A stretch of 63,507 nt of DNA, filler included, from Hausera hauseri (Eukaryota): assembly GCA_046269625.1 (NCBI GenBank). It is 11 parts of 11 records of this genome, joined end to end, with 100 filler letters (N's around TTAATTAATTAA, not from the genome) between each part and the next. Parts side by side here need not be neighbours in the genome. Positions count along the whole stretch, not along the records: positions 1 to 10,491 come from JBJURY010176638.1; 10 more parts are not named here. The stretch is one strand, 5' to 3'. The notes beneath the pieces were generated by a model. That model was given only the letters and a program-made list of their open reading frames with translations, searched no databases and had not been told where the DNA came from. Positions within the stretch are counted from its first letter, which is position 1; each line of letters starts with the position of its first letter. Made by a program: the position numbers and the translations under genes. Positions 236-53,318 of this stretch are shown here, in pieces.

Positions 236-2233
236 TGGCTAATTAATTTCCTAACTGTGATGATGTTAATAAGACAAATGGGAGCGGTTACAATATATGA
301 CCGTGACAAATTCATACTTGGCCAAAGATATTCATTGATGGATTTAAAAATGTGCGAAGATGCGAGACCGCATAAATTAGAAACAAAAGAAAAAAGATAT
401 GTGCTGTATCAGCAACGAGAATTAGTTTCATTGGACGGAATAGAATGCATATTACGACGATTTCTCAATATTTTCCATTGTGGATTAATAAATTGACATT
501 CATTTATAATCAAGCCGACGACCCCACTAATTCCAATGAATTGAGAACGCCAGCATTGTAAGCAGGCTAGAGAGACAGGCAGGCTGAAGTGGGACGGCAT
601 GGAATTAGAAATGCAGCAAGGGAAAATAATCAGAGCATGCAAGGTAATAGCAGGAAGATTATATATGCATACGGGTCAATGTAAAGGTGCAGTATACGAT
701 ATTAGATGGGGATTGGAGTCAAACATAGTGGTTGTGGATTTCTACGAAACCGAGATGCACACATAAAAAGCGGTATACAATAGCGTTACTAAGCTCTATA
801 CGGAAAATCAAAAGTGCCACATACAAGAGGGCACTTGTGTTTTTAGAAGTTCAGGAGTAATTTGAGTCCCTCCAGCCAAGACCGATTGCAATTTTATTAA
901 AATTAAAGAACTACCGTTTAACGAAACAACAGGAAAACGCTACATAAGTAATACGGATACAAACTCAAAAACGCGAGAGGATATAGGAAAACAGCCTACA
1001 CCTACCATATTAATTTTCGATACTCACGGGTTAAAGTTTGTGAATAAAAACGTACTCACAAGGTGTGATGTAATAATGTACGCCACCAATTAGGAAGCAT
1101 TCTTTGTAGCTGAAACCGAGATAAATACCAGAACGTTTAGGCTTGAGACTCAAGATATTGGAATTGAAGATTATTTGTAGAATAGAGACGATTATTTCAA
1201 CTACAAGGGACAGACTGAAATTACTGAGTTATACCATAAAATAATAACGAAGGACTGCAAACTAGACTTAGAAGTCATGAGAACCAAACTGCCTTTAATA
1301 TATGCCAATCCCGAGCTAGCATCACTAATAATTCCGATAAAAGAAGGTGTTTTTGGACGAGTGACCGGAGAAGTTCTTCTGACCCACGAATGCGAGAAGA
1401 AGGATGTACCTATTAACGTAAAAGAGAAAAGGTGCATTCAAAAACTTCCAGTGATATATCAGGACATACCAAGATTGGTAACGCCGATTACAAGAATATT
1501 ACTGGCAAACTCTACCCAACCGAAGATTCTGAAAGATTGTAAAACCAGTTTGGGAGAACCATTGTTTAGACGTAGCAAAACCAATTGGGTAAGTTTACCG
1601 AATGGTGGGATAATTACGCCTAACATCAAGTTAACAGGAAAAAATTTAATAAAAGGAATAACTGATGATAAGTTTCAAGATACTGCAGCAAATGGTTTTT
1701 ACCGGCCAAAAGAAGTAGAGGCGTTTAGATAATTTCTTGCTTTCCCACGCCAACGTACGCATGAATTAAACAGAGCGATGCATACAATACTAGAGAATTC
1801 ACGTTGTACAGCGAAATGGGAATCGTGACTTGGTGTTAATTACTATCAAAAGATGACAACTGAAATATTGTATAAAATCTGCAGAAGATTTCTGATATTT
1901 GGACAAGCCGCATCAGGATTCCTAGCACTTTATTTCTTAATTCAACTGGTTAAGGCGATAATTCAATCGGTTATAAATGGATACAAAAACATCACCCTAA
2001 CAGGATTCCTATGTAAAATCTTAACAGTTATTATCACACTTTTCGGAAAATTTTTAAAGGCGTACGAAAAAAATAAATGGAAAGCGGATGTGAAACGACA
2101 TTTTGGCTATCGTAATCGGAAACGTAAAAGGAGACACATATTTAGTTACAGACGCAAATTTGTAAATGTGAAGACACGAAGAGATAACTCTGACGATGAT
2201 AAGCCTAAGGGAGGAGCGCAGTATCAAGGATAA
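236..2233 (+). pseudogene. env: Chuvirus-like (class III, gB/G-type) envelope glycoprotein with signal sequence and C-terminal TM
   Basis: WLINFLTVMMLIRQMGA/VTIYD, YSLMDLKMCE, IFHCGL, GEVLLTHEC, CIQKLPV, PITRIL, then FLIFGQAASGFLALYFLIQLVKAII..INGY; pattern matches chuviral G-like proteins; ORFs 1277 and 1853 share a frame. Confidence 0.8.
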
Positions 2234-2739
2234 ATAGGCACAAAACTACTCTGTTATAAAACCACCCTTACCAATATTACCGCCAACTGCACCAATATAT
2301 GACGACTGTGAAAAACAATCTGTGTTCATATCAAACAGATATTTATAGAAAACCGTTCAGCCTTGAAGATCCTTATGAAGGAACGAAACATTACGGAATA
2401 TTACGTAAAGTGCTCGAAACGAAAAGAACATCTGACCCATATCGTCGTTCACCGGTCGACAACCATGGAATAATTTATTCACCTAGAATACCCAGGCCGA
2501 ACGAAATACCATCAACATTGTCAAGAGACCAATAGATGCAGAATTTTGGAAACCAAGAATAACAGCCGCCAGTTAGGAATCAGAAAATGGAAAACGCCAA
2601 CTGCATAAATAATGAACTGTACCTAAATGGAGAGATAAGGCAGTAATTCGGTCAACCAGTTGCAACCATCGAAGTGAGAATTAACGACTATAAGGTGTCA
2701 ACGATTCAACATCTAAAGGCAGCGCCAAATTACTATGGT

Positions 2740-3060
2740 ACGGTAACCGAAGGTAGACCCTTCGCAAAAATTCAGTTAGAAGATTGGGAAGTTTACGCAT
2801 TGATAGACACAGGATATGAGATATCATTGATAAAACACGACTCAATATTGCACTTTCTAAGGAAACAGCTATATCCACCTCCAACAAAAGACCCAGGAAG
2901 TATTGGAGCTTTTTGACAGACGTCTAAAAGCAAATTCCTATGTAAGCCAGAAATTCATATAATGGGACAATCATTTCATCACAAATTTTTACTAATGGAA
3001 CAGTTAACAGACGATGTAGTCTTAGGATGTGATCTGTTGAGACAATTATCCAATATGTCA
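2740..3060 (+). pseudogene. pol: Retroviral-type aspartic protease
   Basis: GRPFAKIQL..VYALIDTG and DVVLGCDLL motifs. Confidence 0.88.
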
Positions 3061-3612
3061 ATAGACTTTCATTCAGGGAAATTAATAAAGCTCGGCCCGA
3101 TTAAGGGAGTTAAAACCACTAAAGATAGGCAATTCGGAGAAGTATGGATTCCAATGGACGATAACATTCCGCCGAGAACCGAGGTATTAATATATGCTCA
3201 AGTACGTCAAGACGACGACCGGCCAGAGTACTTTGAACCAAAGGAATCGTTAAATCCAAGCATCGTACTTAGTAACGTATTAACAAGGGCATCGAAGGGC
3301 CAATAATGCTAATAATACACCGACTCCGATCAAACTGTATGCCAATAACACCTTGGATTACACATATAGAGTATCGTCAATAACTACTGAAGGAAAACCT
3401 TACAAGTGTGCCCAATTTCCACTTCACATCGAAACTAAATTTTCACCAGAAGCATACTGTCGATTTTGTGAGCTACTTTGTCACTATAGCTCTGTCATCG
3501 ATAGAGACGAAGAGGACATTGGCAAAGCCAAAGCCTTGAGACTAACAATTGCACTTAAGAAAAGCCTGGCTAATGATGATGAAATAGACTTAGAGGATCA
3601 AAAGATGTCAAA

Positions 3613-4218
3613 ATGGTATTCTCCTCCGCATTATTTAAGGCCGAAAATAACAAAAGAAGTCGGCGTATGTTAAAGGCCGACATAATTAGACCAAGCTATA
3701 GATCTTGGTACTCACCTATACTCATGTTTAAGAAGAAAGGTACTACAAAGCACCAATTTTGTGTCGATTACCGAGCACTAAACACGCTTATGATGAAAAA
3801 TTCTTTCCCATTGCCATCAGTAAAAGAAGCCCTAGATAGACTTTCCGGAGCTAAATGGTTTACCACGCTCAATCTGCAATCCGGATATTGACAAGTAGAA
3901 ATAGAAGAAGAAGACTGCTATAAAACTGCGTTTAAAACACACGATGAAGCGTACGAATTTAATGTCATGCCATTTAGGATAACTGCTAGACCACCCATTT
4001 TTACTCGAATTATGAACAAGATGCTAATGGGACTGAAACACGCGTTCGCGTATCTAGACGACGTAATGACTGCATCAAAAACAGAAGAAGAACATTTAAA
4101 GGATATTGAGAACACGCTTATGAGAGTGGGGCAAGCCGGATTAAAATTAAACCCCAAGAAATGTAAATGGGCTCAAAACACTTTGCCTTATCTCGGACAT
4201 ATAGTTGGAGATGGATAA
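3613..4218 (+). pseudogene. pol: Ty3/Gypsy reverse transcriptase
   Basis: IIRPS..SPI, FCVDYRALN, FPLPSV..LSGAKWFTTL.LQSGY*QV, MPF, AYLDDV, KLNPKKC, YLGHIV. Confidence 0.95.
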
Positions 4219-4408
4219 ATCATTAAGTAAGATATCGGATTTTATGGAACCCCAGAACCAAAAGGAGTTGAGACATTGGTTAGGTTTATGTTGTTACTAC
4301 GCCACTTATGTACCAGAATATTCAAGGATAAATACACCCTTGTATCGCTTTCTTAAAAAAGGAATTAAATAGAAATGGACGGAGGTTGAACAAAAAGCTT
4401 TCGATGAA

Positions 4409-4830
4409 GTGAAAAAAATCTTAACTAGCGAACCCGTTTTAAGATATCCTGATTTTAACCTACCGTTTATAATTAAAGCGGATGCTAGTAACAAAGGTAC
4501 TAGATATGAATTAGCCCAGAAACAAGCGGATAAAAAACTAGATCACCCAATCGCATACGGAGGACGGTCACTAAAGAAAGCTGAAAAGAATTACTCGGTC
4601 ACGGAATTAGAAACATTAGCGGTAAACGAAACTCTACGACATTTTAACGTATAAGTCTACGGAGAGAAGATTATAATAGTTACGGATCATAAAGCAGTTA
4701 CAACCTTGAAAGGTAGAGGAAACAACTCAACATGTAGACTCACCAGATGGATCGAAGAGATCTCACGGTACAATATTGAAATTCAATACAAACCCGAAGC
4801 AAACATGTCGATGCCGATGCACTATCCAGG
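4409..4830 (+). pseudogene. pol: RNase H
   Basis: PVLRYPDFNLPFIIKADAS, HPIAYGGRSL..AEKNYSVTELETLAV, VTDHK, DADALSR. Confidence 0.92.
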
Positions 4831-5034
4831 CTTAAAATTAAAATAAGCACGGTTACGGTAATGCGAAAGGCTCTTTTCGAAGAACTAGTAGATATACAGC
4901 GAGCCTTCACGATGGATAAAGCAACTAAATTTCTACTGAACAAAAGAAGGACAAAGTTATACAACAAATCGTTTAGTTTGTCGAGAATGAACTAACACCG
5001 AAAGAACACCAATTACGGAAACATTTACAAAGAC

Positions 5035-6099
5035 ATGCTCACAAATACAGGAATACTAATGGCCGAACATGACTCATATTTTGCCGGACACATGTCATGG
5101 AAGAAGACATTAGAAAAAAAATTAAATAAATATTATTGGACGAGCGTATACATCGATGTGAAGAATTTGCTAAATGCTCGCGAAGTATGCGCAACCAAAC
5201 AGACGAAAGTGAAAAACTACATTCCCAAACTTAGACCAATAAACATACCGGACAGACCAATGCAAGCGATATCCATGGATATAGCAGGACCGTTACCTGG
5301 AACTCATAAGAATAATACATACTTTCTGATATGTATAGATCGGTCAACTCATTTCGTCGAAATTGTGTCACTAGTGGACCAAAAGGCTAAGACCTTAGCT
5401 GAAGCTCTAGTAAGAAAAATTATCTGCAGATACGGACCTCCCAAACAAATACTGACAAACCGTGGAAGAAACTTTACGAGTGGATTATTCAAAAAAATTA
5501 CCAAAATATTTAAAATTGAACGATTAACCACAACGGCTTACCACTCGCGATGTAACGCAATGGTCGAACGAATGAATCCAACAGTTCAACGAATCTTATC
5601 AACAGTAGTTGCGAAAGACAAGAAGGATTGGGATGGATTTTAATAGGGCACGCCATTTGCCATAAACACTACATCACATCCTGCAACATGATTCACTCCA
5701 TTTTTATGATGTACGGCAGAGAAGCTGTATGACCCACGAACTTAGGAATAATGCCATATACAATGAAGACGGACAATCTAGAGCAAAAAAAAACGATTTA
5801 AAAGACACTATGACAAGAAGGCTAAACCGCATGATCTAGAACAAGAAAACTGGGTTTATTTGCACTATCCAGTAGCCAGGAAAGGTAAGTCATTGAAGCT
5901 CACCCGAACCGGAAGAGGACCTTATGAGGTTCTTAGAACCATGCCGACCACGACGTATATTAACAAAAATGGCAAAGAAGAGATTGTATCTATACAAAGA
6001 GTGGTCAAAACGGAAATAAGGCCAAATAAACGCTGCGACTACGTTCAAGTAAGGAAAATCCAAGTCAAACCAAGAGAGAAAAAAAAACGTCATCGATAG
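5035..6099 (+). pseudogene. pol: Integrase (HHCC zinc domain, rve core, GPY module)
   Basis: HDSYFAGH, KYYW, ISMDIAGPLP, ICRYGPPKQILTNRGRNF, TTAYHSRCNAMVERMN, KL...GRGPYEV. Confidence 0.93.
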
Positions 6100-6119
6100 T
6101 AACTAGACCGATATCATAA

Positions 6120-7450
6120 TCACAAATAATTCTTGCACTATCGCTAATTGCTTCATATATACAAAAGGTAAAAACACAATGGACAATGGGTTTAGCAGAA
6201 GATATACACTGAGTTATGCCACATTTACAAACCGAAAAAGAACAACATGCAGGAAGACGAAAAGATATGCAGAATTTAGAGTCACTTAGAGTGTACAATA
6301 TGAACTGGACCAAACCTTGAGCCTGGTTTAAGGCAAGCGACTCTGTTAAGAGCCATGTAAAATTCCAAATAATATTTCTGGATCAAACTACCTCTGCGAT
6401 GAAGATATGTAATTTCTCGTATGGAGCCCAGCAGAAATATTGCAATTTAGATTTTGGACGGACATATAAATATAAATTTCAAATGTTCTATTATAGTCTG
6501 CCTGGCGCCCAAGCCTATGTAATTATCGAATTGAGAATAAAAATGCCTAAGCGCAACGACATAAATCAAGCCAGAACGGACGATATAATCCGACATACCG
6601 ATCCATTTAAAAGACTCCTATATTATAACATTATTGGAATCTCTAAAGATTTTAAAAAACAATGTATCTGAATTAATACTAAAATAAAATTGCCGAGAGA
6701 AAGATACCAATACATGAAATAACCCCTCGTATGAATTATTGTTATATTGCGCGAGAACAGCGAAATCCGTGCTGCAGAATACCCCTGGACCATGAATACC
6801 AATTGCAATTTGATTTGTACAATACCTAACCGAACGAACCGAGTAATTATTTTAGAGGATATCGTCCAAAAGTCGGAATATGGAAGATTTCCTTCCCAAC
6901 AACTACGAGAAAAAGTACAACTCTCACTACTAATATCGCCACTTTGAGTAGAATGTCCGAGAGAGAATTGGAAAACATACCTGTTAGAATTTGGGCACGG
7001 CATAATAGAATTGTATTTTATGTTGAAGAAACAGTGGATTATGAAAATAAAATCCAGTGTCATACCTTATATACCAACCAAATTGTAATATTAAGGAAGA
7101 ATAGTCGGGAAATTGAACGCAAAGCGCTACGATCACAAAATGAATATATAATTCAAATGACCGTAGATGGTAAGAGACATAAAACTCTGACAGCACGAAC
7201 CCTTAACAATGAAGTTCACGTAATGCAATTAAAAGATACTAGTACCCAAAATGCAATTACTACAGAAAACTCTATTGAACCGAATAACTTACCGATAATA
7301 GCTATATTCAGTTTGTCAATTTTCTTTTTTATAATATTAACAGCGACAATTTTCTTAGTTTCCAAAAACCGTAATAAGCGACGTCAAAATCAACAGAGGG
7401 ATAAACGGGCAAAAGGGTTCCACGACGGACTTTATGATAGCATAACATGA
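6120..7450 (+). pseudogene. Putative second type-I membrane protein downstream of integrase
   Basis: Hydrophobic IILALSLIASYI at ~6125, Cys-containing fragments (6399-6947), TM LPIIAIFSLSIFFFIILTATIFLV (7289-7360) followed by a basic stop-transfer KNRNKRR. Confidence 0.6.
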
Positions 7451-7545: not shown

Positions 7546-8664
7546 ATGGCCGAAAAGGCGAAGAATCTAGCATACAGCTTCAGATACAACATCGATGATT
7601 TTCTACAACAAAATGTGGCAGTTCTAAAGCCTTCATTTAAAAGCTTATACTGCCAAATCAAAGAAAGTTTGAAAAATAAAACGTATTTGGAAATCGATCG
7701 AGAAAGCAAAAAACCGAATGGATTGAAATAGGGTGTAGAGGAAAATCGACTATTCCGACTATAAGCAAGGCGAAGTTTTAAGGATACACGAGCATACCTA
7801 TTGAGAGATATGATCCCATATGAGCCAACACATTAGCAAATGTACATACATGTCGCTGATGGAGAAGTCCAGTACAGGATTGTTGGACAGTCCTGGAGTA
7901 CTCAAAGAGGTCAACAATGGAAATTTAGCACATATGAGCTATGTTGCTCTAGCCTCATGGATTACGCTTTGGAGTTTAGAATCGCAGAGCTTCTAACCAA
8001 ACTTATGTTCGAACTGACCTTACAAACGGAAGTGATGAGGCCACTACCACATATACTGTGTATACAGAAGCCCTCAAAGGATGAGATCGAACGAGTCGGA
8101 GAATCTTTCCAACTGGTTCCAGACGGCAGGAATACTCGAATTCTAGCCGTAAACTATGGAGAAAAGGATGATGAATGGTACACCCCAATTGAAGTTCCCA
8201 TCCGAAGTATAAATGGAGAAGAGATGATTAACAAAATAATCGCGCCGAAAACTAAGGTGAAAGATACATTTCCTGACGTTACCGGAATCACAAAGCTACA
8301 GCTGGAAAAAGGCAAAGATTTCCCAGAAATTCAAGAAGACATAAGCCATTCCTTATATGGATTTGTTGTAACCGGATTTAGAGTACACGATATGCTAGAA
8401 AGGCTAGGAATTCGACAGGAATATATAGCCGGATTTCGTGAATTGATTCTCAATCCGACAGTCGTAAGCCGAACAGAAAGCAGTATAATGAAAAAAAGAG
8501 GATGTCTACTTCCTTCAGCATCACGAGAATCGCAATTTAAGATGATGTTAGAAGCCATGAATGGTGAACATTTTCATTTCCATAAACTAATGCCAGCGAG
8601 TCAAAGGACAAAACTCGTAAGAGATGTTTGTTTCTCTACGATGGGAACACAAGTGGAAAACTGA
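7546..8664 (+). pseudogene. Accessory ORF with DEDDh/REX4-ISG20-like exonuclease fold, catalytic residues degenerate
   Basis: ORFs 7546 and 7840 share a frame; ILAVNYGE..IEV.I....GEEMINKIIAP...VKD...VTGIT...L.KGKDF.EIQEDI...L.G.VVTGF.V..ML..LGI. Confidence 0.6.
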
Positions 8665-9490
8665 ACCCCAAGGACATAATAGTTTCCATATAACTATTCT
8701 AAATAACCCATTCAAGTTACTCAAACAGAAAAGATCGAATGAAAATGGTCAAAAAACCCCCATCGACCAGTCGGAGTCAGACCGAAGGCAGACTAACCTC
8801 TGGAAAAGCAACAGAAAGAACGGAATTCATGGAATCGAACACTAGAGAGACTCAGAGAAGACAAAAGACAAAACTCTCCCTGTTCGAATATATCAGTAGA
8901 AATAAATGTAAGATCAGTAGTAACCACGCCGAGGAAATGAAACCATCTACTAGCAGTCTTACGCCAATCATTAAAGAAGTGACAAACCCCAAGGATAAAC
9001 CGAAAAGGCAGGGAGCCGAAAGATCAAACGAACAAGGAACGAAAATTTGTCATTATGAACCACCTAGAACAGAAGTAAGCGTTCTATCTTAGTAACAGAA
9101 TTCGGTCAGGTTAAAGAGTATACCCCAATGCTTGTCATGGCCGAATACGACAGCAGAGGCAAAATTAAAGGAGCCATATTTTATGTCTCCACTGTTCCTA
9201 GGATAATTATAAGTGGGGATGGATATGCCCGAGAAGACACAACAATTGACAAATATTTAGCCACAATATTTTAATTGAAGAACGGCACCAATAGACTAAC
9301 TATTCCAGTAGATACCCAAGTTCGAGTTCAACTGAATAGACAATACAAAAAGACAGGAATACCTGATTTAGGCAAACAGGAAATTGTTAAATGGACATTG
9401 GTAACCATATCAAATGACCCCACGAAAAGCTCCATAGACTCTAAACAAAAGTGATTATATGGTTATTTATAACAGGACAAGAAAGGATTT

Positions 9491-9925
9491 GTGTTCGAAC
9501 GAATTGAAGTTGACGAAGATCTTTTGGATATAGATGGAGGTGAAAAAGAAGAATGCCCCGTTTGTGACGCAAACCTATACCAAGGATTTGTAGCGTTAGA
9601 TAATAAGGATTGTACACATAAATACTGTCGATATTGCTTAGAAACGTGGACCCTGAAAAATGGGAGAACGACCTACCCGGTATGTAGGGCTGAAGCTACG
9701 AAGTTGCGTTATTTCTCTGATGGAGAGAGTAAGAAGATAGTGCAAATATTCCCTCAAAAACCCACTACAGCTTACCGTTTTGACTTGCGACCCCCGCGAG
9801 ATAAGTCACATTCGGAAGCGGACTTCCGCGACCGAATGAATCATTTACGCGGCACCTCTTTTGACACAATAGGCACATCCGAGATGCCGTTCAGGAAGGA
9901 GAAATGTCGTAGAAAGGAATTGTAA
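9491..9925 (+). pseudogene. C3HC4 RING-finger ORF
   Basis: CPVC-x15-CTHKYCRYC..W..TYPVCR (9554-9685); 7th ligand Cys>Tyr (TAC for TGC). Confidence 0.8.
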
Positions 9926-10591: not shown

Positions 10592-10678
10592 TGGCTATAT
10601 TTTTCATTATTTCCAAAATTACTTCAACGAATGGTAAGTTTTTTATTTGTGCTCCTCAAATAATTGGTTGATTTTTAG

Positions 10679-11290: not shown

Positions 11291-11299
11291 AGAGAAAAT

Positions 11300-14077: not shown

Positions 14078-14084
14078 GATACAA

Positions 14085-16835: not shown

Positions 16836-16872
16836 CGGTATTCCCTTTAATGAGAAATAAAAATAAAAATTT

Positions 16873-21112: not shown

Positions 21113-24100
21113 TTTTGATCCAAGAAAATAAAAATTCCGACGTTCGTGGAAAAACGCCGATGAATTGAAGAAAAGGAGAATTAGATGTCACGATGCAGAA
21201 ATATTACTGCGAAATTTAGAAAGGCTCAAGCAGTTTATCGAACAAGTAGATATATCCGGTAAAGAGCAACAATTCGCTGAGAGGTTATATAAAAGTTTAA
21301 AATTATATAATAAAGGGAAGCTCGATGAAGCAATCGACTTAGGACAACATGAAGAGGTACTACCTGAAACGTTGCTAAAATGGAAGCATGAATTAGAATC
21401 ATGGATTAAAAGTGGAGTGAAATTTTCGGAAGGATGGAGTAAAAACGAAGATGGTATTGATGTAAGAGTCGCTAAAGCTCAGTCTCTATTGTCTACCTTA
21501 GAAACAAATTCAAAACTGAAAAGAGTAGTCCGTAATCTAGAGCGTATGATGGTTGAAATTCATTGGTCAATGGTTAACCGGCTTAGAGAAAAACCGGTTA
21601 GCAATCAAAGTGATATTGATTTAGTGATATTGGGTATAGGCCAGTAGATATTCCTCACTTAATGGAGATGATAAAAATCGCCTTCGCCGTACCCAAACAA
21701 TATATGAACCTAGAGAATCGTATTAAAATGGAAAATGAAAAACGAGCACAAATTTGTAGTTTGAGAAATCGAATTATGTTTATGAATAACAAAGAAACCA
21801 AATAGGTAATAAAAGCTTGTATCAAAGAATTCGACGAATATAAGGATGAATTCAATTATGTCAGCCAGATAATAAGGTTTATAAAGGATCCAAATGACAA
21901 ATTAAAGGATGCATATAAGATGATAGACAACGCTATATTAGCAAAGTCAGTAATACCTAATCAACTACAGGAATGGTAGGCCGTAGAGTAAAAGACCGTA
22001 GGAAAGAATTTCCAGAAAGCGAGCCTTCTATCAAGAAACAATTAGAAGCAAGTGCACGTAACTTAAATATAATATAAGCGGAAATAGATATCCGTACTCA
22101 GTTCGAAGAATTAGGACAATTAAACTTTATAAAGAAGAGGCAAGAACTAACGATATTAGAAGAGATATACAAAATGATCGAAGAAACAAACTTTACAGAA
22201 AAGCGGAATATGATTTGTAATATTTATCCAAGATTAAGAAATATCCGACTAGTAGGAGTCCAGCATTTAACAGCTAAACCTACCGATGAAATCTCAATTC
22301 AGGATGTATAAACCTTAAATATTTGTCCAGAACATAGAACAGCTTTAAAAGACACGATGAGATTCATACATAAACCACACGAATGTATAGTCGGAACAGA
22401 TCAGAATTGCCATAACGAGTTGACAAAAATAAGAAACGACCACCATCTTAGTTCTGAAGAATCTAAATTCGTAAAAGAATTGCTCGATGCGATAGATTTC
22501 GACTCAAAAATCATTAATGAGATGTACTAGTTAGCCTTTCTCTTAGTAGAAATGGCAGAAATTAGTGATGAAAAGATGAGACAATTGATTACCAAATTAC
22601 AACAAGTAGAAGAAACATGCATTAGAACTAAACAAAGAGAACAAGGTTAAATGAATTAATAAAATAGATGGAAGTCTATCGGAACAAATATGTTTTTACC
22701 GAGTCAGAAATGAAAAATAAGCGTGAATTTGTACAAAGATGGAAAGAGATGTAATCGTCGAACTAACTGATTATCACCAAAAGGGATTTATCCATTCTGG
22801 TGAATTAGGCGAACTACTGAAAATGATTCAGTATTCATGTGGAAACGGAATAGGTATCTGAACCACACAGATAAAAGAAATACAACCAAGGTTAAAGGAA
22901 TTTCGAGAGAATGTACAAAGGAGGAATACAGCACTAGTAGACTATGGATTTCCAGACGTTGGAAATGAACCGGAATGGGATGCGTACTTAGGTGCAATAA
23001 CGGCCGAAAATCCTGTGACTCTAGTACAGCTAAATAAAATAGAAACATGTCCGCAGAACAGGCAATTCAATGTGGAGATGCTCCTGGATTCAGAGTTAAC
23101 TGAAAAAGATTTAATTGAACTAATTAACGTAAACATTACTGAAAGTAAGTTAAGACAACAACGATGAAAGTAATGGTATCATCCGAATGGATGAATGAAA
23201 AAGAATGTGAGTTAACTACGTATTCCTATGTAAGGGATGTAAGAGAATGGTTAATAAATAATGGTAGAACAAACGAATTAAACTATAGACTCTATTTTAA
23301 AGGTAGAATAGTAGACGATTAGAACAGCTAATATACGTCGGAATCATCCCCGACGAAACAAATGGAATAGTGGTGATAGTAGCCAATAAACGGACTCAAG
23401 AAAAAGCCACACGAAAGGCTAAGACAGCAAAATGCGTAGGGCAAATCATGGGAGTCCGAGACGCGGCAATGTATTTTGAATATTTACAAACGGATGAGGA
23501 CAAGGAACAATACGACAAGAATTTAGTACCACTAAGTGAAACGATAACCAATGTCCCAAGACAGAAACGCCCAGTCGGTAGACCTAAGAAGACACGAGAA
23601 GAAGCTGACTATAATGGAGAATTGATTAAAGAATTGAGATGGATGTCGATTCATACCTTCAGCACAGACGATAAAGAATTAAGCGAATTAATGAAGAATT
23701 TAATACGTATTGTAAATTATTCAAATCGTCGAGGTGACACATTAGATTACAAAGATAGGGCAATATTCAATGCAGCTAGGATGATGAGAAGTTCACGTTT
23801 TAAATGATCAAAAAGTAGTTTAACTGATGAATCAGTGATCGAAAAGATTATGGTAAAAAACACCACTGAAGAATTAATCAAAGTAATGTTGTACGTAGCT
23901 ATCAAAATAAACCCTAATTGAGACAATGAACTTACTAAAGCTACAAGCTTAGCATGAAGAGCGGCGATAAAGCTACCCTAAGAAGTAAATTGGTCGAGAC
24001 CATTCGATAAGGAAGAAGCCAGATGGTTCCTAAGTAGCAATAGACTCGAAGATATGCTACGTAATTTGACAACGACGGATAATAGTAGCTGGAAAAACGA

Positions 24101-25514
24101 ATCCAATTGGTTAATCAGCTTACTCACTCTGATGATGCTAATAAAGCATATAGATGATGTTACCATCTACGACTGCGATAAGTTTAAACTAGGACAGAAA
24201 TATTTCTTGATGGATTTAGAAGTATGCGAGGACGCCAGACCACATAAACTGGAAACAAGTGAGAAAAATTACTTCCTATATAAACAGCAAGAATTAATAT
24301 CGTTGGACGGAATGGAATGTATGTTGAAACGATCTCGTAGCATTTTTCACTGTGGATTAATGCACTGACATTCTTTAATAATCAAACCAACAACTCTTCC
24401 AATCCGAATGAATTTGGAACGCCAGCATTGTAAGCAGGCCAAGGAAACCGGAAGATTAAAATGGGATAGTATGGAACTAGAGATGCAATCAGGAAAGATA
24501 ATTAGGGCATATAAAATAGTGGTAGGAAGGCTAGACATGCATAATGGACATTGCAATGAAGCAGAATATGATATCGGAAAAGGATTAAAATCGAAAGTAG
24601 TGATCGTAGATTTTTATAAATTGGAGATGGGAGTACAGAAACTAATGTTCTATAGCGTGACCAAACTATATACCGAGAATCAAAAATGCGATTTCCAAGA
24701 CGGAACCTGTACATTCAGAAGTTCTGTTACAATATGGAAACCGCCCTCTGGAAAAAACTGTAACTTTATTAAAATTAAGGAATTAAAATTTAACGAAACT
24801 ACCGAAAAACGGTATGTAGATAAATCCGATAACAGCTCAAGAACACGCGAGGACGTATCAGAACACCCTACACCTACGATATTAATATCCGACCAGCATA
24901 TAATAAAATTTATTAAGAAAGAAATGATTCTCGATGCGCAGTGGTGATGGTCGCCATTTTTCGAAGCATTTTTTGTCGCAGAAATGGAAATAAATGCGAA
25001 AACGTATAAACTAAAAACGAAGGACATTCGGATTGAAGATTACTTGAAAAACCTAGACAATTATTTTTATTACAAAGGCCAAGTCGGAATAGCTGAACTA
25101 TACCACAAAATAATAACGAATGATTGTAAACTGGATATGGAAATCATGAGGACAAAGCTGGCTCTTATCTGTGCTAATTCCGAGTTAGCATCCCCAATAA
25201 TTCCTATGAGAGAAGAAATCTTTGGTCAAGTTACTGGTGAAGTACTGTTAACTTATGAGTGTGAAAAAAGAGGCGTACCAATCAACGTTGAAGAAAAACG
25301 CTGCATACAAGAACTTCCCGTTATTTACCAGAATACTCCAAGATTAGCCGTACCGCTTACTAGAGTGTTATTATACAATGCAACTGAACAACAATTCTTA
25401 AAGATTGTAAAGCAAGTTTAGGAGAACCCATGTTTAGGCGTAGTAAAACGGATTGGGTTAGTTTACCAAATGGAGGTATTACTGTCGCTTCCAACAAATT
25501 AACAGGAACAAATA
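21113..25514 (+). mobile_element. chu-Gypsy copy 2 (helical region X, Ubl, AT-hook-like motif, glycoprotein), decayed
   Basis: Homologous to copies 3 and 5 (DISGKEQQFAE, VRDAAMYFEYLQTD, KRPVGRPKK). Confidence 0.88.
24108..25514 (+). pseudogene. env: Chuvirus-like glycoprotein (partial)
   Basis: WLISLLTLMMLIK..VTIYDC, RSIFHCG, GRLDMHNGHC, LYHKIITNDC, GEVLLTYEC, CIQELPV. Confidence 0.8.
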
Positions 25515-25614: not shown

Positions 25615-26715
25615 CTTATCTTCGTCTTCTATTGTGTTGGTTTTACTCTCTTTTAGTTTTGCTCTAATCTTCTGTTGTAACTTTTCAATTGTTTCTTCAG
25701 GTTCTGTATCAGTAGTTTCGTGTTCGTTATCTGTATCTGATATATTGCCTACTATGTCAATATTCTTTTTCTTCTGGCTTGACTGTCCTTGATTGGGGCA
25801 GGTACGAGCCATGTGTCCATATCTTTGACACGCAAAACACAATGGTTGTCCATCTTGGTTAATTGGGAGTTTTCTCATTGTAGATTTTTGAGGTTGATTC
25901 TGCCAATTATTCTGAAGTGGCTTTTGCCATGTAACTTTCTTCTGAGTCTGTTGCTCCGGTTGATTTTGCTGCTTCTGAAATGGTTTTGGGAAACTTTTCT
26001 TTTGTTGAAAATTTTTCTGTTTCTTTTCATCATTCTTAAAGGACTTTTTTGCATTTTCAAGTCTCTCATAATTCACTTCAATTTTTCTAGCTTTACTAAC
26101 AGCTTCTTTGTAAGTATCCGGATCAGCGACAATAATGTAATTTTGGATTTCCTTATTAACTCCATAACAGAACTGAGCTAGGAGGGCATCTTCCCTTATA
26201 TCATCATCTGCGTAGGCTCTCTGAGCCAGTTTCTGAAGGGCACATGCATACTCTTGCACGGTTTCGCCTTTCCTCTGACGTCTTCTATTGAATTCTCCAA
26301 TTCGACCCTTTCCTGACGGGTCTACTAAGAGCCTTTCCTCTAGAGCGTCTTTAAGGCTAGCCCAATCAGCCTTATCTTCATCTTCTTTTATTTGAGTATA
26401 AGCACTAAGTGCTATGCCTTTAAGATGTAAAGGGAGCCGTTTGGTCCTATGCTCATCTGTCCACCCATAACTTTCAGAATACATTTCGTATTGCATAATA
26501 AACTCTGCGTAATCTTGGTCCGGCTTTGCCTCGTATTTTTCCATGGGTAACACCATCGTACTGTTTAGGTTACTGCCTAAACTAGTTCCAAGTCCTGAGG
26601 ACATTTCGGGATTCTGATTTTCTAACTGAAGATTTTCGTCTGATTCGGAACTACTCCGTGCCGAATCAGTGCGCGAATTTATGTTAGTAGCGTGTGCTTT
26701 ACGTTTCTTACGCAA
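25615..26715 (-). CDS. gag: Gag of a second Ty3/Gypsy family (capsid + CCHC zinc knuckle); first ATG at 26604; open to contig end
   Basis: YGWTD..LPLHLKGIA, RRQRKGETVQEY...LQKLA, LLAQFCYGV, CFACQRYGHMARTC. Confidence 0.9.
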
Positions 26716-26737
26716 AGAATACGACGCCAGTGTGCCT

Positions 26738-26754
26738 CCTCACTCGGGGCACCA
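26738..26754 (-). other. Primer-binding site TGGTGCCCCGAGTGAGG (elongator tRNA-Met-like)
   Basis: Follows the LTR end ...TATCA after 1 nt; complementary to a tRNA 3' end CCUCAC(U)CGGGGCACCA. Confidence 0.8.
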
Positions 26755-37174: not shown

Positions 37175-37920
37175 AATCGATAACCCAATTTGCTTTTGCC
37201 TTAAAGAAACTGGCAAACAGTTATGTGAGCACCTTAAGGATTTCAAACATAGCCAAGGCTAAAAATGAAGCAGAACGTGAAGCCGAAGAAAAGTCAAGTC
37301 CTCCCGATTTGGACGTCATGATGATGACGCAGTTACTAAATGGTATTTGGTCTAAAGACATAGTAAAGCAATTGATTCTAGAACGTCCCGAGAATTTTGA
37401 TAGGACGTTGCAATTAGCTCAGGACTTGGAGATGTCATAGGATAGATATGCCAGAAACAATGATAGATATGATCGAAATAATGGCCAAGCTGATCGAAGT
37501 CATAGGAATCGCAATAATAGAAATGATAGACGATATAATAAGAATTATGGAGATCTGAACAGGAATGATAATTGTGACCGTAGGAACGATCGATACAATA
37601 ATTAGAATTTTGGTCGAAACAGCCCATTTAGCAAATTAAACTACAATGCGGACAGATACGCAGACTGTCCAAAAAACTTTAATAATTAAAGTCGACAGAA
37701 GGACAATCGGAATTATGATAATCTCCAATATGGACAACCAAGACAGGCTCCACCGCAGCAAACTTACAATAGAAATCCGAGTAGATCTAAATCTCCATTA
37801 AATAAAAATGGCCGTCAAAGAGTTGGAAGAAATGGCAATTTATTCTGTTTTACATGTGGACAAGAATGACATATAGCGAGGTCCTGTCCGAATCCGCGAA
37901 GCGTCTCGTTTGTGGAACCC
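37175..37920 (+). pseudogene. gag: Gag C-terminal part (capsid C-domain, R/N/D-rich tract, CCHC knuckle)
   Basis: ITQFAFALKKLA, QLLNG..L...PENF...LQLAQDLE, CFTCGQE*HIARSC at ~37845. Confidence 0.8.
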
Positions 37921-40900
37921 AGCAAAATTAACGTAATTAGAAACGAAAATTTAGAAGCAATCTATGGCGTTTGTTGAGACACAGGCATGGTTATCGAGAT
38001 ACAATATTTACGACGTTTTTTGAAAAACCAGCCTGATACTGATGACCCCAAAGTTCTAGTGGCTAGAAACGAATATGAGCACAAATTACGATTAATGGAA
38101 GTCTATCACGGTCTACACAAGCCACAAACAGAATATAAACGTTTTATCGCCCCGCCAAGGCTTACTGATATGGCACGGAAGAAGAACCTTCCGAGGACAA
38201 GCAAAGAGTCAGGCGAAATGGAGAAACCTTAGACTCCGGATAAAATAACTATAGAGGTAGAGCCAGAGCATACTATAAAAAAGATAATTGAGGAAATAGA
38301 CGTCGAAGAGAAGGAAGAATTCCTAGAGCCGCTCATTCTCAAAATTACTAAAAACAAAGGCCGTAGTCTCTCGTTGAAGCGAAAACGCAAGGATAGATCA
38401 AGATCTCCCATGCGCAAGTCGAGCACAAAGAAAGAGGTCGAAATCGCACCAAAAAGCGACATCGAGTGCGCCTCAAACTGTCCAGAAATTAGTTTAGTTA
38501 CGCCCGGAGAAATAGAAGAACTGATAAAAATTGCAGATAAAATAAACGATGTATGTCCGATAACTACTAGTGAGGAGGAAACAGAACAAGAAGAGAAACT
38601 TGATCCTAAAAAGTGGAAAATCAGGCGCTCGTGGAAAAATTTCGAACAGTTAAAAAGCATGAGGGAAAATTGTCACAACTTAGAGGTATTACAACAGAAT
38701 TTAGAGAAACTCAAAGCAATAAGTGAACAAGTAGATATTTCGGGCAAAGAACAGCAGATTGTAGAGATACTGTATAAAAAGATGAAACTATACAGTGAAG
38801 GAAAGCTAAGTGAAGCCATAGATTTGGATCAACCCGATGAAGTTGCAAAAGAGACTCTGGCACAATGGAAACGCACATTAGAGCGCTGGATGAAAGTTGG
38901 GACGAAAAATCTAGAGACATGGGATAAGACCACCCAAGACATTGAAACTAGAATCAGCCAGGCTCAGTCGCTATTAGCAACATTAGAAGCCAACCCGAAA
39001 TTAAAACGAGCGGTACATAATCTAAAGCGTGTAATGGATAAAATTAGATTCATCATAGCTGAGCAACTAAAAAAGAAACCGGTTAAAGAAAGGACTGAAA
39101 CTGATCTGGAGATGTTGGGTATAGATTCCTTAGATATTCCGCCTTTAATGGAGATGATAAAAATCGTTTCTAATGCAACAAGGCAATATACCAGTCTGGG
39201 AAGTCGAAAAACTGTCGCAGATAAATAGTCTAAGGAATAGAATTATGTACCCAAATAACGATGAAACACGGAGAATAACTGTAGCTTGTGTCCTGGAATT
39301 TAATGAGCATGAAGAAGAGTTTGACTATGCCTGTCGGATCATTGATTTCATTAAAGGCCCAGATGATGAACTAGAAGACGCCAACAAGATGTCAAACAAA
39401 GCGATACTGGCAAAGCCAGATATCAGGAATCAAATGAATGAGTGGTCCAAAGTAATAACAAGTTTGAGCGAATTAATAAGTAGCCGGATGAACGAATTTC
39501 CGCAAAGCGAATGTAGAGTAAAGAGGCAGTTGAAGGAAGACGCCCAAAATTTAGATACGATGAAAGCAGAAATTGACATCCGAACGCAATTCAAATCCTT
39601 ACGCCTGTTGGATTTTATGGACAGGAAACAAGAAATAATGATGCTTGAGGACATATATAAAGTGATCGAAGAAACAAACTTTACACAAAAGCGGAATGAG
39701 ATTCATGACCTTTATCCAAAATTAAGAAAAGTCCGCCTAGAAGGAATTCAAAATTTGGCCACCAAGCCCATAGGAGAAATATCCGTTCGTGACCTTAAGG
39801 CATTAGACGTTTGTACCAATCACCAGTCAACCCTCGAAGAGATAGTGGCGTTTTTACATCAACCACAGGAAGGAATGCCTGGAGCCGACCGAAGGTATCA
39901 TATCGAATTAACTAAAATAAGGAATGACCAACATCTGAATTTTGAAGAAGTTAAGTTCATAAAAAGGCTACTTGATGAAATAGACCCCGACTCCAGAGTT
40001 ATTAATGAGATGTATGACCTAGTACAACTAATGGTGGAAATGGCAGAAATCAGCGATGAGAAATTAAGACAGCTGCTGCCACAGATACGACAAATTGAAG
40101 AAACTAATATCAAAACCAAACAGAGAGCGATGAAATTTGACGAACTAGCCAAAGAACTCAAACCGTATAAAGTTAAGTATGCTCTTACCGAAGCAGAGAA
40201 GGTTGACAAGTCGCAATTTGTGCATAAATGGCAACTGGACGTAGCTTCCGAGTTAACTAATTACCAGGAAAAGGGATTTATATCAGCCGAAGAATTATGA
40301 CAGCTGCTAACCGTACTACGTCAAACTTCTGGAAATTGATGCTGTTTCCGAACCACCAAAATGGTTATAATGCAACAGAAGCTACGAGAACTTAGAGCAA
40401 CCGTAGAGATTGCGGGTGCAAATAGGTCGACTGACACACTACCGAGAAGTTATTCATTACCGGATAATGAAAATGAGCCAGATTGGGAGGCATATCTAGA
40501 TGCCATGATGGCCGAAAATCCGAAAACCCCCGTGCGATTGAACGAAACAGAGGTACCGTCGCCGGACCAGAAATTCTGTGTAGAAATGCTCTTAGATCCG
40601 GTACAGACTGAAAATGAACTATTTAGGTTAATCAATGTGAACCTCACTGAAAAGCAATTAATACGGTTGGTTCCCACTTTAACCAAATTGGCCAGCGAAG
40701 GTACAGTTTACAGTGCCGCGCCAAAACTTTTAATCAAAGAATATGCTGAATTTCTAAGGACAAGGCCCGAAGAGGGAATTAAAGTAAAAATAACGGCAGA
40801 TTGGATGGATGAAAAGGAAGAAGAGTTCACTACGCATTCATCCGTGAAGGATGTATTACTATGGATAACGAATAACGGTTACACCCACGAGCTGAACTAT

Positions 40901-41718
40901 AGGCTATATTTTAGAGGAAGAATGCTTGACGAGTCGGAACTATTGATAGAAGTCGGAATCATTCCTGACGAGGTGAACCGGTTAGTGGTAACCATCGCTA
41001 ACAACGAGACAAAAGAAGAGGCTATAAGGAAGGCAAAGGCCGAACAGCCAATAGGACGAATAATAGGAGTCCGAGACGCGGTAGTGTATTTTGAGTACCT
41101 ACAGACAGATGAAGATCATGAGCAATACGATAAAAATTTGGTACCGATTAATGTCGGTATACTTGTTGTAACGAAACAAAAGCGACCTATTGGTAGGCCA
41201 CGGAAGATACGGGAAGAAATTGACTATAATGGAGACTTGATCAGAGAAATGGGGCAGATATCCATATTAAACTTTAGTGCAGATAATGAGGAACTGAATG
41301 AACTAATGAAAGATTGGATACGAATGGTAAATTACTCCAGTTTGAACGGTGATGTGTTAGATAAAAAAAGGCCATATTAAATGCCGCCAAGGCCATGAAA
41401 GGCATCCGGTGTAAATTATCTAAAAGTACCTTAAGCGACAAAGCAACGATCGAGAAAATTATGGTGGAAAATACCGTGGAGGAATTGAGAAAAGTGATGC
41501 TATATTTAGCCATCAAAACCAATCCGAATCGCAAAAACGAATTTAACAAGGCTGCCAGTTTAGCAAGGAAGGCTGCCAGGAAAATACCTCGAGAGGTGAA
41601 CTGGTCTAAGCTATTCGAAAAAGAGAAAGAACCTAAAGGAGAATTCTTCTTAGACATCAACAGGCTCGGTGACCTGCTACAAAACGTAGCCGGAAACCGC
41701 AGAGGAAACGAATCGATT
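37921..41718 (+). pseudogene. Region X: long charged helical protein segment with ubiquitin-like domain (40778-40996) and AT-hook-like motif (41180-41206)
   Basis: ORFs 37987, 38374, 39173, 40361, 41395; conserved in copies 2 and 5. Confidence 0.75.
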
Positions 41719-42815
41719 TGGCTAATCAACCTCTTGACCATTATGATGCTGATAAGACAGATAGGCGCCGTCACTGTACATGATTGTCACAGATTTAGAC
41801 TTGGCCAAAAATACTCCCTAATGGACTTGGAAATGTGCGAAGATGCGAGACCACACAAACTGGAAACAAAGGAAAAAAGTTACGTGTATTATACCAACAG
41901 CGCGAACTAATTACATTAGATAGAGTAGAGTGTATGTTGAGACGATCCCGAAGCATCTTCCACTGTGGACTAATACATAGACACTCGTCAATAATTAAGC
42001 CAACCATCCCCCTAATTCTAATGAATTTAGAGCGTCAACATTGCAAACAAACCAGAGAAACGGGAAGAATAAAATGGGATGGAATGGAATTAGAGATGCA
42101 ACAAGGGAAGATAATTAGAGTGTATAAGGTGGTAGCAGGAAGGCTGGACATGCACACTGGACATTGCCAAGGCACAGAATATGATACGGGAAAAGGATCA
42201 GAGTCAAACGTCGTGGTAGTGGATTTTTACGAAACCGAAATGCGCATACAAAAAGTGATGTTTCATAGCGTTACCAAGTTCTATACCGAGAACCACAAGT
42301 GTCGCGTTCAGGATGGCACATGTCCATTTCGAAGTTCAGTAGTAATTTGGGAATCACCAGCTAAAATTGATTGCAACTTCATTAGGATTAAAAAACTTAA
42401 ATTCAACGAGACGACCGGAAAACAGTACATAACTAGTACAGAAACCAACTCTAAAACACAAGAAGATGTAGCCGAACAGTCCACACCCACTATACGGATT
42501 TCTGATACTCATGGATTAAAATTTGTAAAGAAGACCATGCTCACCCGATGCCACGTAGTAATGTATGCTACCAAATATGAAGCGTTTTTTGTAGCCGAGA
42601 CTGAAATAAATGCCCGAACGTTCAAACTCAAGACTCAAGACATCCGAATTGAGGATTATGTGAAGAACAGAGACGATTACTTTTATTATAAAGGAAAAGC
42701 CGGAATAGCCGAGTTGTACCACAAGATGATAACAAACAATTGTAAATTGGACTTGGAAATCATGAGAACTAAATTAGCTCTAATCTACGCCAATCCGGAG
42801 CTGGCGTCACCAATA
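41719..42815 (+). pseudogene. env: Chuvirus-like glycoprotein (N-terminal half)
   Basis: WLINLLTIMMLIRQIGA/VTVHDC, RSIFHCGLIHRHSSI, GHCQG, NVVVVD, VVIW..DCNF, LYHKMITNNC. Confidence 0.82.
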
Positions 42816-44112: not shown

Positions 44113-44124
44113 GTATACGAATAT

Positions 44125-49234: not shown

Positions 49235-50990
49235 GCAAGTTGAAGTCCGGGTATTGTAAAACTGGTTCGCGTGTTAGAATCTTCTTCATTTCGTCGAAAG
49301 CTTTCTGTTTGACATCCGATTATTTCCATTTAATTCCTTTCTTAAGTTGGCGATACAAAGGTGCATTTACTATCGAGTTGTCTGGCACATAAGAGGCATA
49401 ATATCCACATAAACCTAGTCACTGTCTTAACTTCCGATTTTATGGCTCCATGTCATCTTATATGTTGTCCAATAATGATTTTTCTGGCACCGATCCTCCT
49501 TCTCCAACTATATGGCCAAGGTTGGATACTGCGTTTTGAGCCCCTTTGCATTTCTTTGGGTATAATTTTAATCTTAATTGTTTCATTTGCATCATTATAT
49601 GCTCGACATCCTTTAAATGTTCTTCTGTTTTTGACGCTATTATTACATAATCTAAGTACACAAAAGCGTTGTCCTGTCCCATTAACATTTTATTCATCAT
49701 TCCTGTAAAAATGGTCGGTCCGGTAGTAATGCCGAACGGCATAACGTTAAATTCATAAACAACATCACGTGTTTTGAATGTCGTTTTATAACGGCCTTCG
49801 TCCTCGATTTCTACTTGCCAATATCCAGATTGTAAATCCAGAGTGGTAAACCATTTTTCACCTGAAAGCTTGTCTAGAGCTTCGTTTGCTGATGGCAGTG
49901 GGAAAGAATCCTTCAACATAAGACTGTTCAGTGTTCTGTAATCAATACAACATTGATGTTTTGTAGTACTTTTCTTTTTAACCATAAAGACTGGCAAGTA
50001 CCAAGATTTGTAGCTGGGCTTAATTATGTCTGCATTTAGAATTCGTTCAACTTCTTTTGTTGTCTCAGGTCTTTTGTTATCTTGTTGTCTCAGAGAATGA
50101 GATGGAGGTTACCATTTCGGCATCTTCTGGTCCTCAAGATCTATTTTCGGGCTTTTTCTTAAGCGGAATAATCAGTCTTAAAGTCTTTGCTCTACAAATA
50201 TCCTCGTCGTCTTTAGCAATAATAAATTTATAGTAGCATAATAATTCGTAGAATAGACAATAAGACTCGTGTGAAAACGTAGTTTCAACATGAGGTGGAA
50301 TTTCAGCATATTTGAAAGGTTTTTTTCAACAGTTATGGACGACACTCTATAAGTATTTTCCAAGGTAGTATAAGCATGTAGCTTGACTGGGTCGGTGCAT
50401 TATTCGCTATTCTGATCGGCACACGGTCTGACTTTACTCTTGCCAATATATTATTGATTACTATATTCGGAATTAACGTTTTCTTTGGTTCGAAATATAC
50501 TGGTTGGTAATAATCTTGTTGAATTTGTGCATAAATTATTATCTCTGTTCTCGATGGAATATTTTTGTCTATTGGAATCCACACTTCTCCAAATTCCCTA
50601 TCTTTAGCAGTTTTTACGCTTTTTATTGGTTTAATCTCTATTAGTTTTCCTGCTTGCATGTCGATTGCTACATTTGGTAGTATTTTAGCAGGTCGCAACC
50701 TAAAATTACATCATCAGTTAATTGTTCCATAATTGCAAATTCATAACAGTAAAACAATCCAAGTATATGAACCTCTGGCTTCCATTTGACTATCGGTTTT
50801 GACATTTGGCCAAAAGCGCCTGTGCTTTTCGGGATCTATTGTTGATGGTGGATACAACTGTCTTCTTAACGTTTGAGGAATTGAATCATTCTTGATGTAA
50901 GACGTCTGAGAACCTGTGTCTATTAAGCACAAACTTCCCAATCTTCTGTAGTGACTTTGGCAAAGGGTCTCCCTTCTATTTCTGTTCCGA
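49235..50990 (-). pseudogene. pol: Protease + reverse transcriptase
   Basis: GRPFAK, LIDTGSQ, CIDYRTLN, FTTLDLQSGYWQV, MPFGI, YLDY (mutated YLDD). Confidence 0.92.
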
Positions 50991-51455
50991 AGCAATTTGA
51001 TGCGGCCTTTGGGCGTTTAATTACCGATATTTTATGGCCGTTACTTCTGATTTCTGAGGAGGATACTATGCATTCCGACAGTTGTCTTAGTTCTTCATTT
51101 TGGTATAATTCGTTATTTTCAGTATTCGAGTTTTCCTTTTCATGAATACTAATTAGTGGTTCTCGGTTGTTCGTATGTGGTTCTATATTTTGAAAAGTTT
51201 GAAACCTTTGATTTCCCCAGACAGTTGGTCTGATCTCTATATTTCGAGGTTCTCTTGGAGAGTATAAGGTTCTAGGACCGTCCGTAGGCTCTCGGTAGAG
51301 CATTCTTCGTAAGATTCCATATCCTTTCATCCCTTTGTAAGGGTCTTCGAGATTAATCGTTCTCTTATAGATTTCTGTTTGATATGAACCCTTTGATCGC
51401 TTATCACAGTTTTCGTAGACTTGAGCAAAAGGGGGTAGCATGGGCAATGGTACCT

Positions 51456-53212: not shown

Positions 53213-53318
53213 TTTGGATTCGTTTCTTCGGCTGTTATTATGCGTCATCGTCAGATTACGTAACACATCTTCGAGTCTCTTATTAATATAGGACCGTTTG
53301 TCTTCTTCCTTATGGAAT

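Follow-up and report, generated by a model that had tools for sequence, protein, structure and literature searches.

Decayed Ty3/gypsy-type retroelements with a predicted gB/chuvirus-type envelope gene placed between gag and pol

The stretch of Hausera hauseri DNA analysed here (the window, 63,507 nt) opens on a damaged reading frame that had been predicted to encode a chuvirus-like class III fusion glycoprotein, carried in five copies by a Ty3/Gypsy element and acquired by a capture of its own. The locus therefore raises the question of what kind of element carries this envelope gene, and whether the gene was taken from a virus or inherited with the element. Our reading, to which we give a probability of roughly 85%, is that five sister families of a giant animal retroelement, of Ty3/gypsy type, are represented in the window by decayed members. 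In these elements a predicted gB/chuvirus-type env lies between gag and pol, likely as part of one Gag-insert-Env-Pol polyprotein as in the planarian element Burro, and env probably descends by inheritance from an old lineage of retroelements.

A predicted class III envelope gene in five sister families

The env frame at 236-2233 (+) spans 665 codons with 8 in-frame stops. Read with X at the stops, it matches the Pfam family PF24664 (Monjiviricetes_fusion) with a score of 169.8 bits where the cut-off is 27 (E 8.6e-50), and covers profile positions 8-606 of 653. An AlphaFold2 model, made from an alignment of 101 rows (3 window rows plus 98 of the best 150 of 254 matches), reached a pLDDT of 84.7 and a pTM of 0.64, and contains an N-terminal helix (residues 2-13) and a long central helix (317-357). 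Foldseek comparison of the model with the PDB returned herpesvirus gB in 38 of 38 rows among the matches listed (best E 1.8e-13, identity 9-11%, TM-score about 0.35-0.4). In a library of viral structures the best matches were chu-like and related G proteins (E 5e-35, identity 14-20%), headed by a chu-like G with 16% identity and a TM-score of 0.60. A sequence search of the PDB gave no match at E 10, and a word-index protein search scored none of 4,542 candidates. Two hydrophobic segments, at residues 562-580 and 586-604 (~1919-1975 and ~1991-2047), are followed by a basic tail; the second is read as membrane-adjacent because relatives show one strong membrane segment there. An internal signal-like segment lies at the start of env and falls below the hydropathy threshold in the 236-2233 copy. 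The predicted identity as a class III, gB/chuvirus-type fusion glycoprotein holds on the profile match and the model, and a role in fusion is predicted from them. The series of ten sequence motifs on which the prediction had drawn is an approximate composite: four of the patterns match the 236-2233 copy as written, while R.IFHCG..H.S, W....C.F, GEV....C and FG..SG.L...GY occur as written in none of the five copies and match only in looser versions.

The window is made of 11 separate contigs joined by identical N spacers, and env homologues occur at five places, one each on five different contigs: 236-2233 (+), 24108-25513 (+), 41719-42815 (+), 53212-51501 (-) and 55683-53714 (-). The five copies had been correctly counted, but their DNA identity of only 67-78% over the 10 pairs makes them five sister families rather than copies of one element. 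Silent sites are near saturation in all six pairs formed by four of the env copies (pS 0.68-0.78, against pN 0.12-0.19), and dN/dS is 0.05 and 0.07 in the two of these six pairs for which it is computable. Env was thus under purifying selection while the five families diverged, and each piece in the window decayed afterwards. Tandem or local duplication as the source of the five copies was rejected because they sit on separate contigs.

The window pieces are dead or incomplete. Family 1 (236-2233) carries the 8 stops in env already mentioned. Family 2, at 21113..25514 (+), comprises the insert that precedes env and env residues 1-470, with 2 stops and a frame change. Family 3, at 37175..42815 (+), runs from Gag's C-terminal portion through a CCHC knuckle (~37846-37893; PF00098 E 7e-4) and the insert to env residue 365, and has a frame change; both families are cut by a contig end. 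Family 4, at 53419..59436 (-), holds the end of a zinc knuckle, an insert of ~1,250 residues and env residues 1-451 in one frame, with the env tail continuing in frame into the linker; 11 stops and a change of frame interrupt it. Family 5, at 49235..53318 (-), holds a heavily broken env (several frame changes and a deletion), the linker, protease, RT and the start of RNase H. Every window env (5 of 5) is broken or cut off and both pol regions are broken; intact copies may exist elsewhere in the genome. A search of sequencing runs listed one that contains the sequence, and no RNA run among those listed. An alternative genetic code was ruled out as the cause because the breaks use all three stop codons.

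Several other sequences lie beside these elements. Positions 1-190, directly ahead of family 1, have no homology to the other families, where the insert continues instead, and form a very abundant repeat in sequencing run X1 (highest summed depth of 30 bins); this is probably a different repeat, which cuts family 1 short immediately ahead of env. The stretches 10592-16872 and 59537-63507 are occupied by decayed elements coding for a protein-primed-type B DNA polymerase (PF03175 E 4e-5); they are 79% alike and include an inverted duplicate within contig 2. Pieces of an INTS8-like host gene (43651-44433; PF25756 E 5e-16) adjoin a Gag-like fragment recognised by eye (45318-45791); a search with the INTS8 piece to place the host matched 0 of 199. 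An open frame of 628 codons at 46761-48647 (-) has no Pfam match, and the integrase zinc-binding domain of another gypsy-type element lies at 33823-34167 (PF17921 E 4e-14).

Gene order and cargo of the elements

In family 1, env is followed on the same strand by a linker to the protease (2234..2750), broken by small indels as judged from the frames and a DNA alignment of three copies. Next come a retropepsin with a DTG motif near 2806 and the spacer behind it (2752..3300; tblastn with relatives E 9e-10, Pfam RVP only E 0.026). Reverse transcriptase (YLDD) and RNase H follow at 3583..4804, interrupted by stops and a frame change (PF00078 E 1e-27, PF17919 E 8e-31, PF17917 E 2e-28), and an integrase with H2C2 motif, core and C-terminal part lies at 4996..6040 (PF17921 E 1e-8, PF00665 E 2e-11; tblastn). 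The PR-RT-RH-IN order is that of Ty3/gypsy elements (Metaviridae). The best PDB match of the RT is Ty3 (E 8e-38), followed by caulimovirus-type (1e-23) and foamy virus (6e-11) enzymes, a ranking by similarity rather than a tree, and one in which BEL/Pao RT is absent from the rows listed. Peptidase_A17 and DUF5641 are what we take to be marks of BEL/Pao, and the pol pieces scanned contain no Pao-type Pfam family at E 0.01. Similarity searching thus supports the original prediction of a Gypsy-type pol. The spacer between PR and RT is homologous to the spacer of relatives, has no Pfam match and lies where Burro has its dUTPase-like region. LTRs, a primer site and a target duplication were not found on contig 1, the contigs ending inside elements or being truncated; a tRNA search found none, and the metagenome loci L001 and L002 described below contain no self-repeat.

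The order of genes, which the original prediction did not include, places env downstream of gag and upstream of pol. Two of the five contigs carry pol behind env on the same strand. The contig of family 3 starts in Gag's C-terminal portion and has the CCHC knuckle upstream of env; a capsid match is found only on the contig of a more distant sister family, where Gag (capsid and CCHC; PF19259 E 1e-3, PF00098) lies at 25615..26739 (-) and is cut by a contig end. The contig of family 4 starts at the end of the knuckle and continues in one frame of 1,702 codons, through the ~1,250-residue insert, to env residue 451. This frame contains 10 stops, against ~127 expected from its composition (0.075 per codon). 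From there the env tail of family 4 runs in frame into the linker for ~137 codons up to the contig end, and the frame of the linker is continuous with that of the protease in family 5. The env-linker junction is in frame in one of the three copies that cover it, with small indels at this point in families 1 and 5 in the DNA alignment of the three. No single contig extends from gag through pol, and the whole layout is pieced together from overlapping families.

Relatives show the same arrangement in longer ORFs. Queried with 1,199 family 4 residues, made up of ~750 from the end of the insert and env residues 1-450, HMMER gave 254 matches, of which the best 150 were examined; the nearest relatives among the matches listed are long unnamed ORFs with 25-33% identity. 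PF24664 was found in 23 of 24 relatives scanned with Pfam. Env is followed in the same ORF by RT, RNase H and integrase in 4 of the 24, by RT and RNase H in 1 and by a protease in 5 more. It precedes protease, RT, RH and IN in the long ORFs P0003, P0005, P0011 and P0014, and the cluster mates P0152 (4,844 aa) and P0156 (3,003 aa) have the same env-then-pol order. Two metagenome loci, L001 and L002, were found among 594 pattern matches. In L001 a single ORF of 3,703 codons encodes Gag, two ubiquitin-like stretches, Env, PR, RT, RH and IN, then a membrane protein, and is followed by an exonuclease ORF; L002 resembles this locus but is cut at the 5' end. The Gag at 25615..26739 is 84-87% identical to P0012, whose ORF has the order Gag-insert-Env; a search for further relatives of the P0012 insert returned P0012 alone among 2,430. 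With the portion of the N-terminal helical region that was searched, only P0026 (150 aa, 38%) matched, and the first 500 residues of the insert had no match in a Pfam scan.

Some peculiarities of the relatives may be recorded here. Several retropepsin-like repeats per ORF occur in P0152, P0002, P0003, P0006 and L002, up to 7 stretches in P0152, together with ankyrin and C2H2 matches. In L002 a membrane-protein module like the one behind integrase was also seen, by eye, between env and pol. NCBI lists P0005, a complete retroelement polyprotein of Env and Pol, under a Flavobacteriaceae MAG; it is most likely animal DNA in a bacterial bin.

The insert appears to carry cargo. A putative ubiquitin-like domain at 56370..56700 (-), and again at 40760-41080 (+), matches Pfam ubiquitin (E 0.029) and UBX (E 0.007), in both copies below the curated cut-offs, and scores E 8e-5 against a profile of segments of relatives picked by eye (top 7 of 107 sequence windows). 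It is followed by a motif that we take to be AT-hook-like. Just before env, at 55750..56127 (-), is a degenerate helical domain at the position of the Bcl-2-like domain of relatives. In P0004 this domain is Bcl-2-like (Pfam E 1e-3; Bcl-xL E 0.01) and the window domain aligns with it in register; a WxxxxGGW pattern of relatives, presumably BH2-like, is reduced in the window. For the window sequence itself the Bcl-2 assignment is weak. Against a four-row profile, 3 of 1,000 shuffles reached the real score. With a six-row profile 0, 10 and 80 of 1,000 shuffles did so for three copies of the domain, and other sequence windows of the insert scored higher. HHalign gave a probability of 5%. A profile of the pre-env domain matched Bcl-xL in the PDB at E 0.05-0.4, with designed helical proteins ranking above it and one alignment row in the wrong frame. 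A fold prediction of the ubiquitin-like and helical region had a pLDDT of 36 and no Foldseek match at E 0.001, and the corresponding segments of P0015 and L002 had no Bcl-2 match.

Behind the integrase of family 1 lie four further ORFs on the same strand. ORF A (6100..7450) consists of broken frame or frames ending in a strong transmembrane helix (~7295-7351) and a basic tail, as seen by hydropathy, at the same position as a second membrane protein fused behind integrase in relatives. The membrane domains of the relatives find each other in 4 of 4 leave-one-out tests, and they contain two membrane-spanning segments after integrase in P0005 and P0156 and at least one in P0003, P0011 and P0152. 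Against a profile of these domains ORF A scores 5-7 bits, under an out-of-frame sequence window at 10 bits (1,356 windows), and so does not rise above background. ORF B (7669..8664) is homologous to the accessory gene for a DEDD exonuclease (RNase T family) that relatives carry (pairwise E 3e-7 with the L002 ORF, 3e-4 with the L001 ORF), although direct searches of Pfam and the PDB gave no match. The accessory ORFs L001:12085-13473 and L002:10617-12107, behind uninterrupted polyproteins, match PF00929 exonuclease. Their first acidic motif is intact; it is replaced in ORF B, which is therefore predicted to be inactive and is a probable pseudo-exonuclease. ORF C (8703..9092) is basic and has no Pfam match, and ORF D (9101..9925) has a C3HC4-type RING finger (PF13639 E 6e-5; PF00097 E 2e-4, at its cut-off). 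Strand, a shared A-rich skew, the ORF B match and cover by multiple contigs in run X1 suggest that ORFs A-D belong to the element. In that run 16,617 of 15.5 million contigs aligned and 30 of 30 bins were covered, with about three quarters of the alignments <95% alike; X1 may be the source of the window itself, so this cover adds no independent support. A narrow word search of the open-access literature, of a kind that missed even PMC6431247, found no printed account of a second membrane protein or an exonuclease in gag-env-pol elements.

This layout suggests how such an element might have worked. One long Gag-insert-Env-Pol polyprotein would be made. Its internal signal segment would direct the Env ectodomain into the ER lumen, and beyond the membrane anchor Pol would again lie in the cytosol. 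Release of the parts could then fall to signal peptidase together with the element's own retropepsin. Capsids would form at the membrane holding Env trimers, tying assembly to Env-bearing membrane. Fusion of the particles with other cells would be the task of Env, most likely inside the host animal as they travel to germ line or stem cells. Host cell-death and ubiquitin pathways may be the targets of the cargo (ubiquitin-like, Bcl-2-like and RING).

An element of the same ancestry might have used Env only as a membrane anchor, or for direct spread from cell to cell, and made no free infectious particle. A single ORF would fix Env at about one per Gag and Pol, unlike the situation in retroviruses, which speaks for such a use. 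However, the whole ectodomain and its cysteine frame have been under strong purifying selection across families, which would be needless in a mere anchor, and we consider this use unlikely, though worth keeping in mind.

Origin of the envelope gene

The original prediction took the pairing of a Gypsy-type pol with a chuviral G to be unusual and to imply an independent capture. According to the portions of PMC10084718 available, no clear gypsy capture of a chuviral glycoprotein had been found, which is the state of knowledge that the prediction reflected. That the pairing is unusual is not supported: PMC13524379 reports 114 gypsy elements carrying the chuvirus-like gene of mosquito BEL/Pao elements, and PMC6431247 describes a like env in Burro.

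Phylogeny bears on the capture more directly. A FastTree analysis of 101 rows placed the window env in an 18-row clade (support 0.97) with polyprotein rows, apart from ~80 stand-alone G-sized proteins. In an IQ-TREE analysis of 43 rows it fell in a 19-row clade (SH-aLRT 95) with all 16 polyprotein-labelled rows, two of them short fragments. The other clade (99) holds three virus G proteins, one from a named chu-like virus and two from contigs with a Mononegavirales-type polymerase, and the DUF5641-bearing row P0088. The check by phylogeny that had been proposed thus leaves both the virus G proteins and the one BEL/Pao-like row outside the 19-row clade of the window env. The 43-row tree is a quick search with SH-aLRT values and no bootstrap, its virus sampling is thin and its 22 stand-alone rows were picked from the matches. 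The two virus contigs, L003 and L004, come from negative-strand RNA viruses and carry a PF24664 G beside the polymerase. A pattern scan for RT over viral contigs found none.

The rival reading is that a gypsy element took up a chuviral G by itself and founded a separate infectious lineage. In its favour, the best structural matches among viruses are chu-like G; the window env sits on a long branch (1.53 in the 43-row tree) and is only 25-33% identical to its nearest relatives, and GAG-ENV-POL elements are not monophyletic on pol according to PMC13524379. On the other hand, virus G proteins are only 14-20% identical to the window env, and the named virus G P0039 matches no better than ~1e-12, against E 1e-60 for the envs of retroelement polyproteins. 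The polyprotein relatives also share the position of env, the upstream ubiquitin-like domain and the downstream exonuclease-like ORF. Because env nests in both trees among polyprotein-embedded retroelement envs and apart from virus G, a separate capture is unsupported, and we regard it as quite improbable. We favour inheritance from an old retroelement env, as far as sequence comparison can tell.

A BEL/Pao element of the Anakin kind would carry the same glycoprotein family and share the PR-RT-RH-IN order, and our RT comparison was a similarity search in which BEL/Pao RT did not feature. This is nevertheless very improbable, as the RT matches Ty3 at E 8e-38, PF17917, PF17919 and PF17921 are present on pol pieces that show no Pao-type family, the window env lies upstream of pol and the DUF5641-bearing P0088 belongs to the other env clade. 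We give virtually no weight to a chuvirus fragment (a non-retroviral endogenous viral element) lying by chance among gypsy debris, as the glycoproteins flanked by gypsy fragments with no clear capture in the available text of PMC10084718 might suggest, since in diverged families env occupies a constant position with respect to gag and pol, on the same strand and in the same frame, has a dN/dS of 0.05-0.07 where computable, and is refuted as a fragment by the in-frame Gag-insert-Env run and the uninterrupted relatives.

Meaning and comparison with known elements

The layout with env between gag and pol has already been described from flatworms and nematodes, and the window is a new, divergent example of it. 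It adds a deeply diverged and abundant branch to the gag-env-pol retroelements. The purifying selection on a chuvirus-like env through the split of five families agrees with an envelope that is old and functional rather than recently captured. The gain is modest, because the pairing of gypsy with a chuvirus-like env is already in print; the cargo is worth a look, namely the second membrane protein behind integrase, the probable pseudo-exonuclease and the RING ORF. A bolder and rather improbable proposal sees in Burro-like elements a broad lineage of invertebrate retroviruses, mostly uncatalogued, whose single polyprotein yields two surface proteins: a class III fusogen located between Gag and Pol, and a separate attachment-type membrane protein behind integrase. 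Cargo related to apoptosis, ubiquitin and exonucleases would come with them. On this view, with an env clade as deep as that of the chu-like viruses, the gene may have passed from retroelements to viruses rather than in the opposite direction.

The glycoproteins of Jingchuvirales/Monjiviricetes and herpesvirus gB have the class III fold and the cysteine frame in common with the window env, but differ from it in sequence, as the identities above show, and the window env is an internal part of a polyprotein. Anakin, a BEL/Pao element of mosquitoes, likewise carries the same glycoprotein family on an LTR retroelement (PMC7642597), but it has a BEL/Pao pol, and the BEL/Pao-like row falls in a different env clade from the window env. 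The LTR elements of bdelloid rotifers with a DEDDy exonuclease ORF3 resemble the window elements in having an accessory ORF of an exonuclease family behind pol; according to PMC5408684 they are without a true env, and window ORF B, a homologue of PF00929-type ORFs, has lost the first acidic motif.

The nematode elements known as NERV have, by description, env before pol, as in the window elements. They are said to have been reported by Sacco et al. in 2022 with a continuous gag-env-pro-pol ORF. Their env and pol order is given as flipped, as cited in PMC13524379 (Chary and Hayashi, eLife 2026). That paper, as far as its available text goes, describes gB-type env on Ty3/gypsy elements across animals, with a GAG-ENV-POL order in Nematoda, Bryozoa and Platyhelminthes. 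Its gB-type errantiviruses share with the window elements a Ty3/gypsy pol, a gB-type class III env related to chuvirus G, the position of env before pol and multiple copies. The errantivirus set has intact, LTR-flanked copies, whereas the window elements are decayed, and the ~1,250-residue insert and the ORFs behind pol are features of the window elements that the available sections of PMC13524379 do not mention for errantiviruses.

The closest likeness is to Burro of planarians, together with GYPSM1. In the accessible text of PMC6431247, Burro has one ORF of ~4,900 aa with Gag, Ubi/SUMO-like, BCL-2, Env, PR and a dUTPase-like region, and its Env, in frame between gag and pol, matches mononegavirus glycoproteins. 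The window elements resemble this description in what is probably one giant ORF (whole in the relative L001). It comprises Gag (CCHC), a long stretch of helices, a ubiquitin/SUMO-like domain and, where Burro has BCL-2, a helical domain. Next, in frame between gag and pol, is a mononegavirus-like Env, then PR, a spacer, RT, RH and IN, and extra ORFs have ubiquitin-pathway domains. The window elements differ in that a scan of window pieces gave no MATH, BIR or ankyrin match, the domain at the Bcl-2 position is degenerate, and a membrane-protein ORF, an exonuclease-like ORF and a RING ORF lie behind integrase. Their length, summed over overlapping pieces, is ~16 kb, against a Burro internal region of up to 25 kb. 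The window elements are best filed as a divergent, decayed Burro-like GAG-ENV-POL lineage, likened to Burro by description rather than by sequence.
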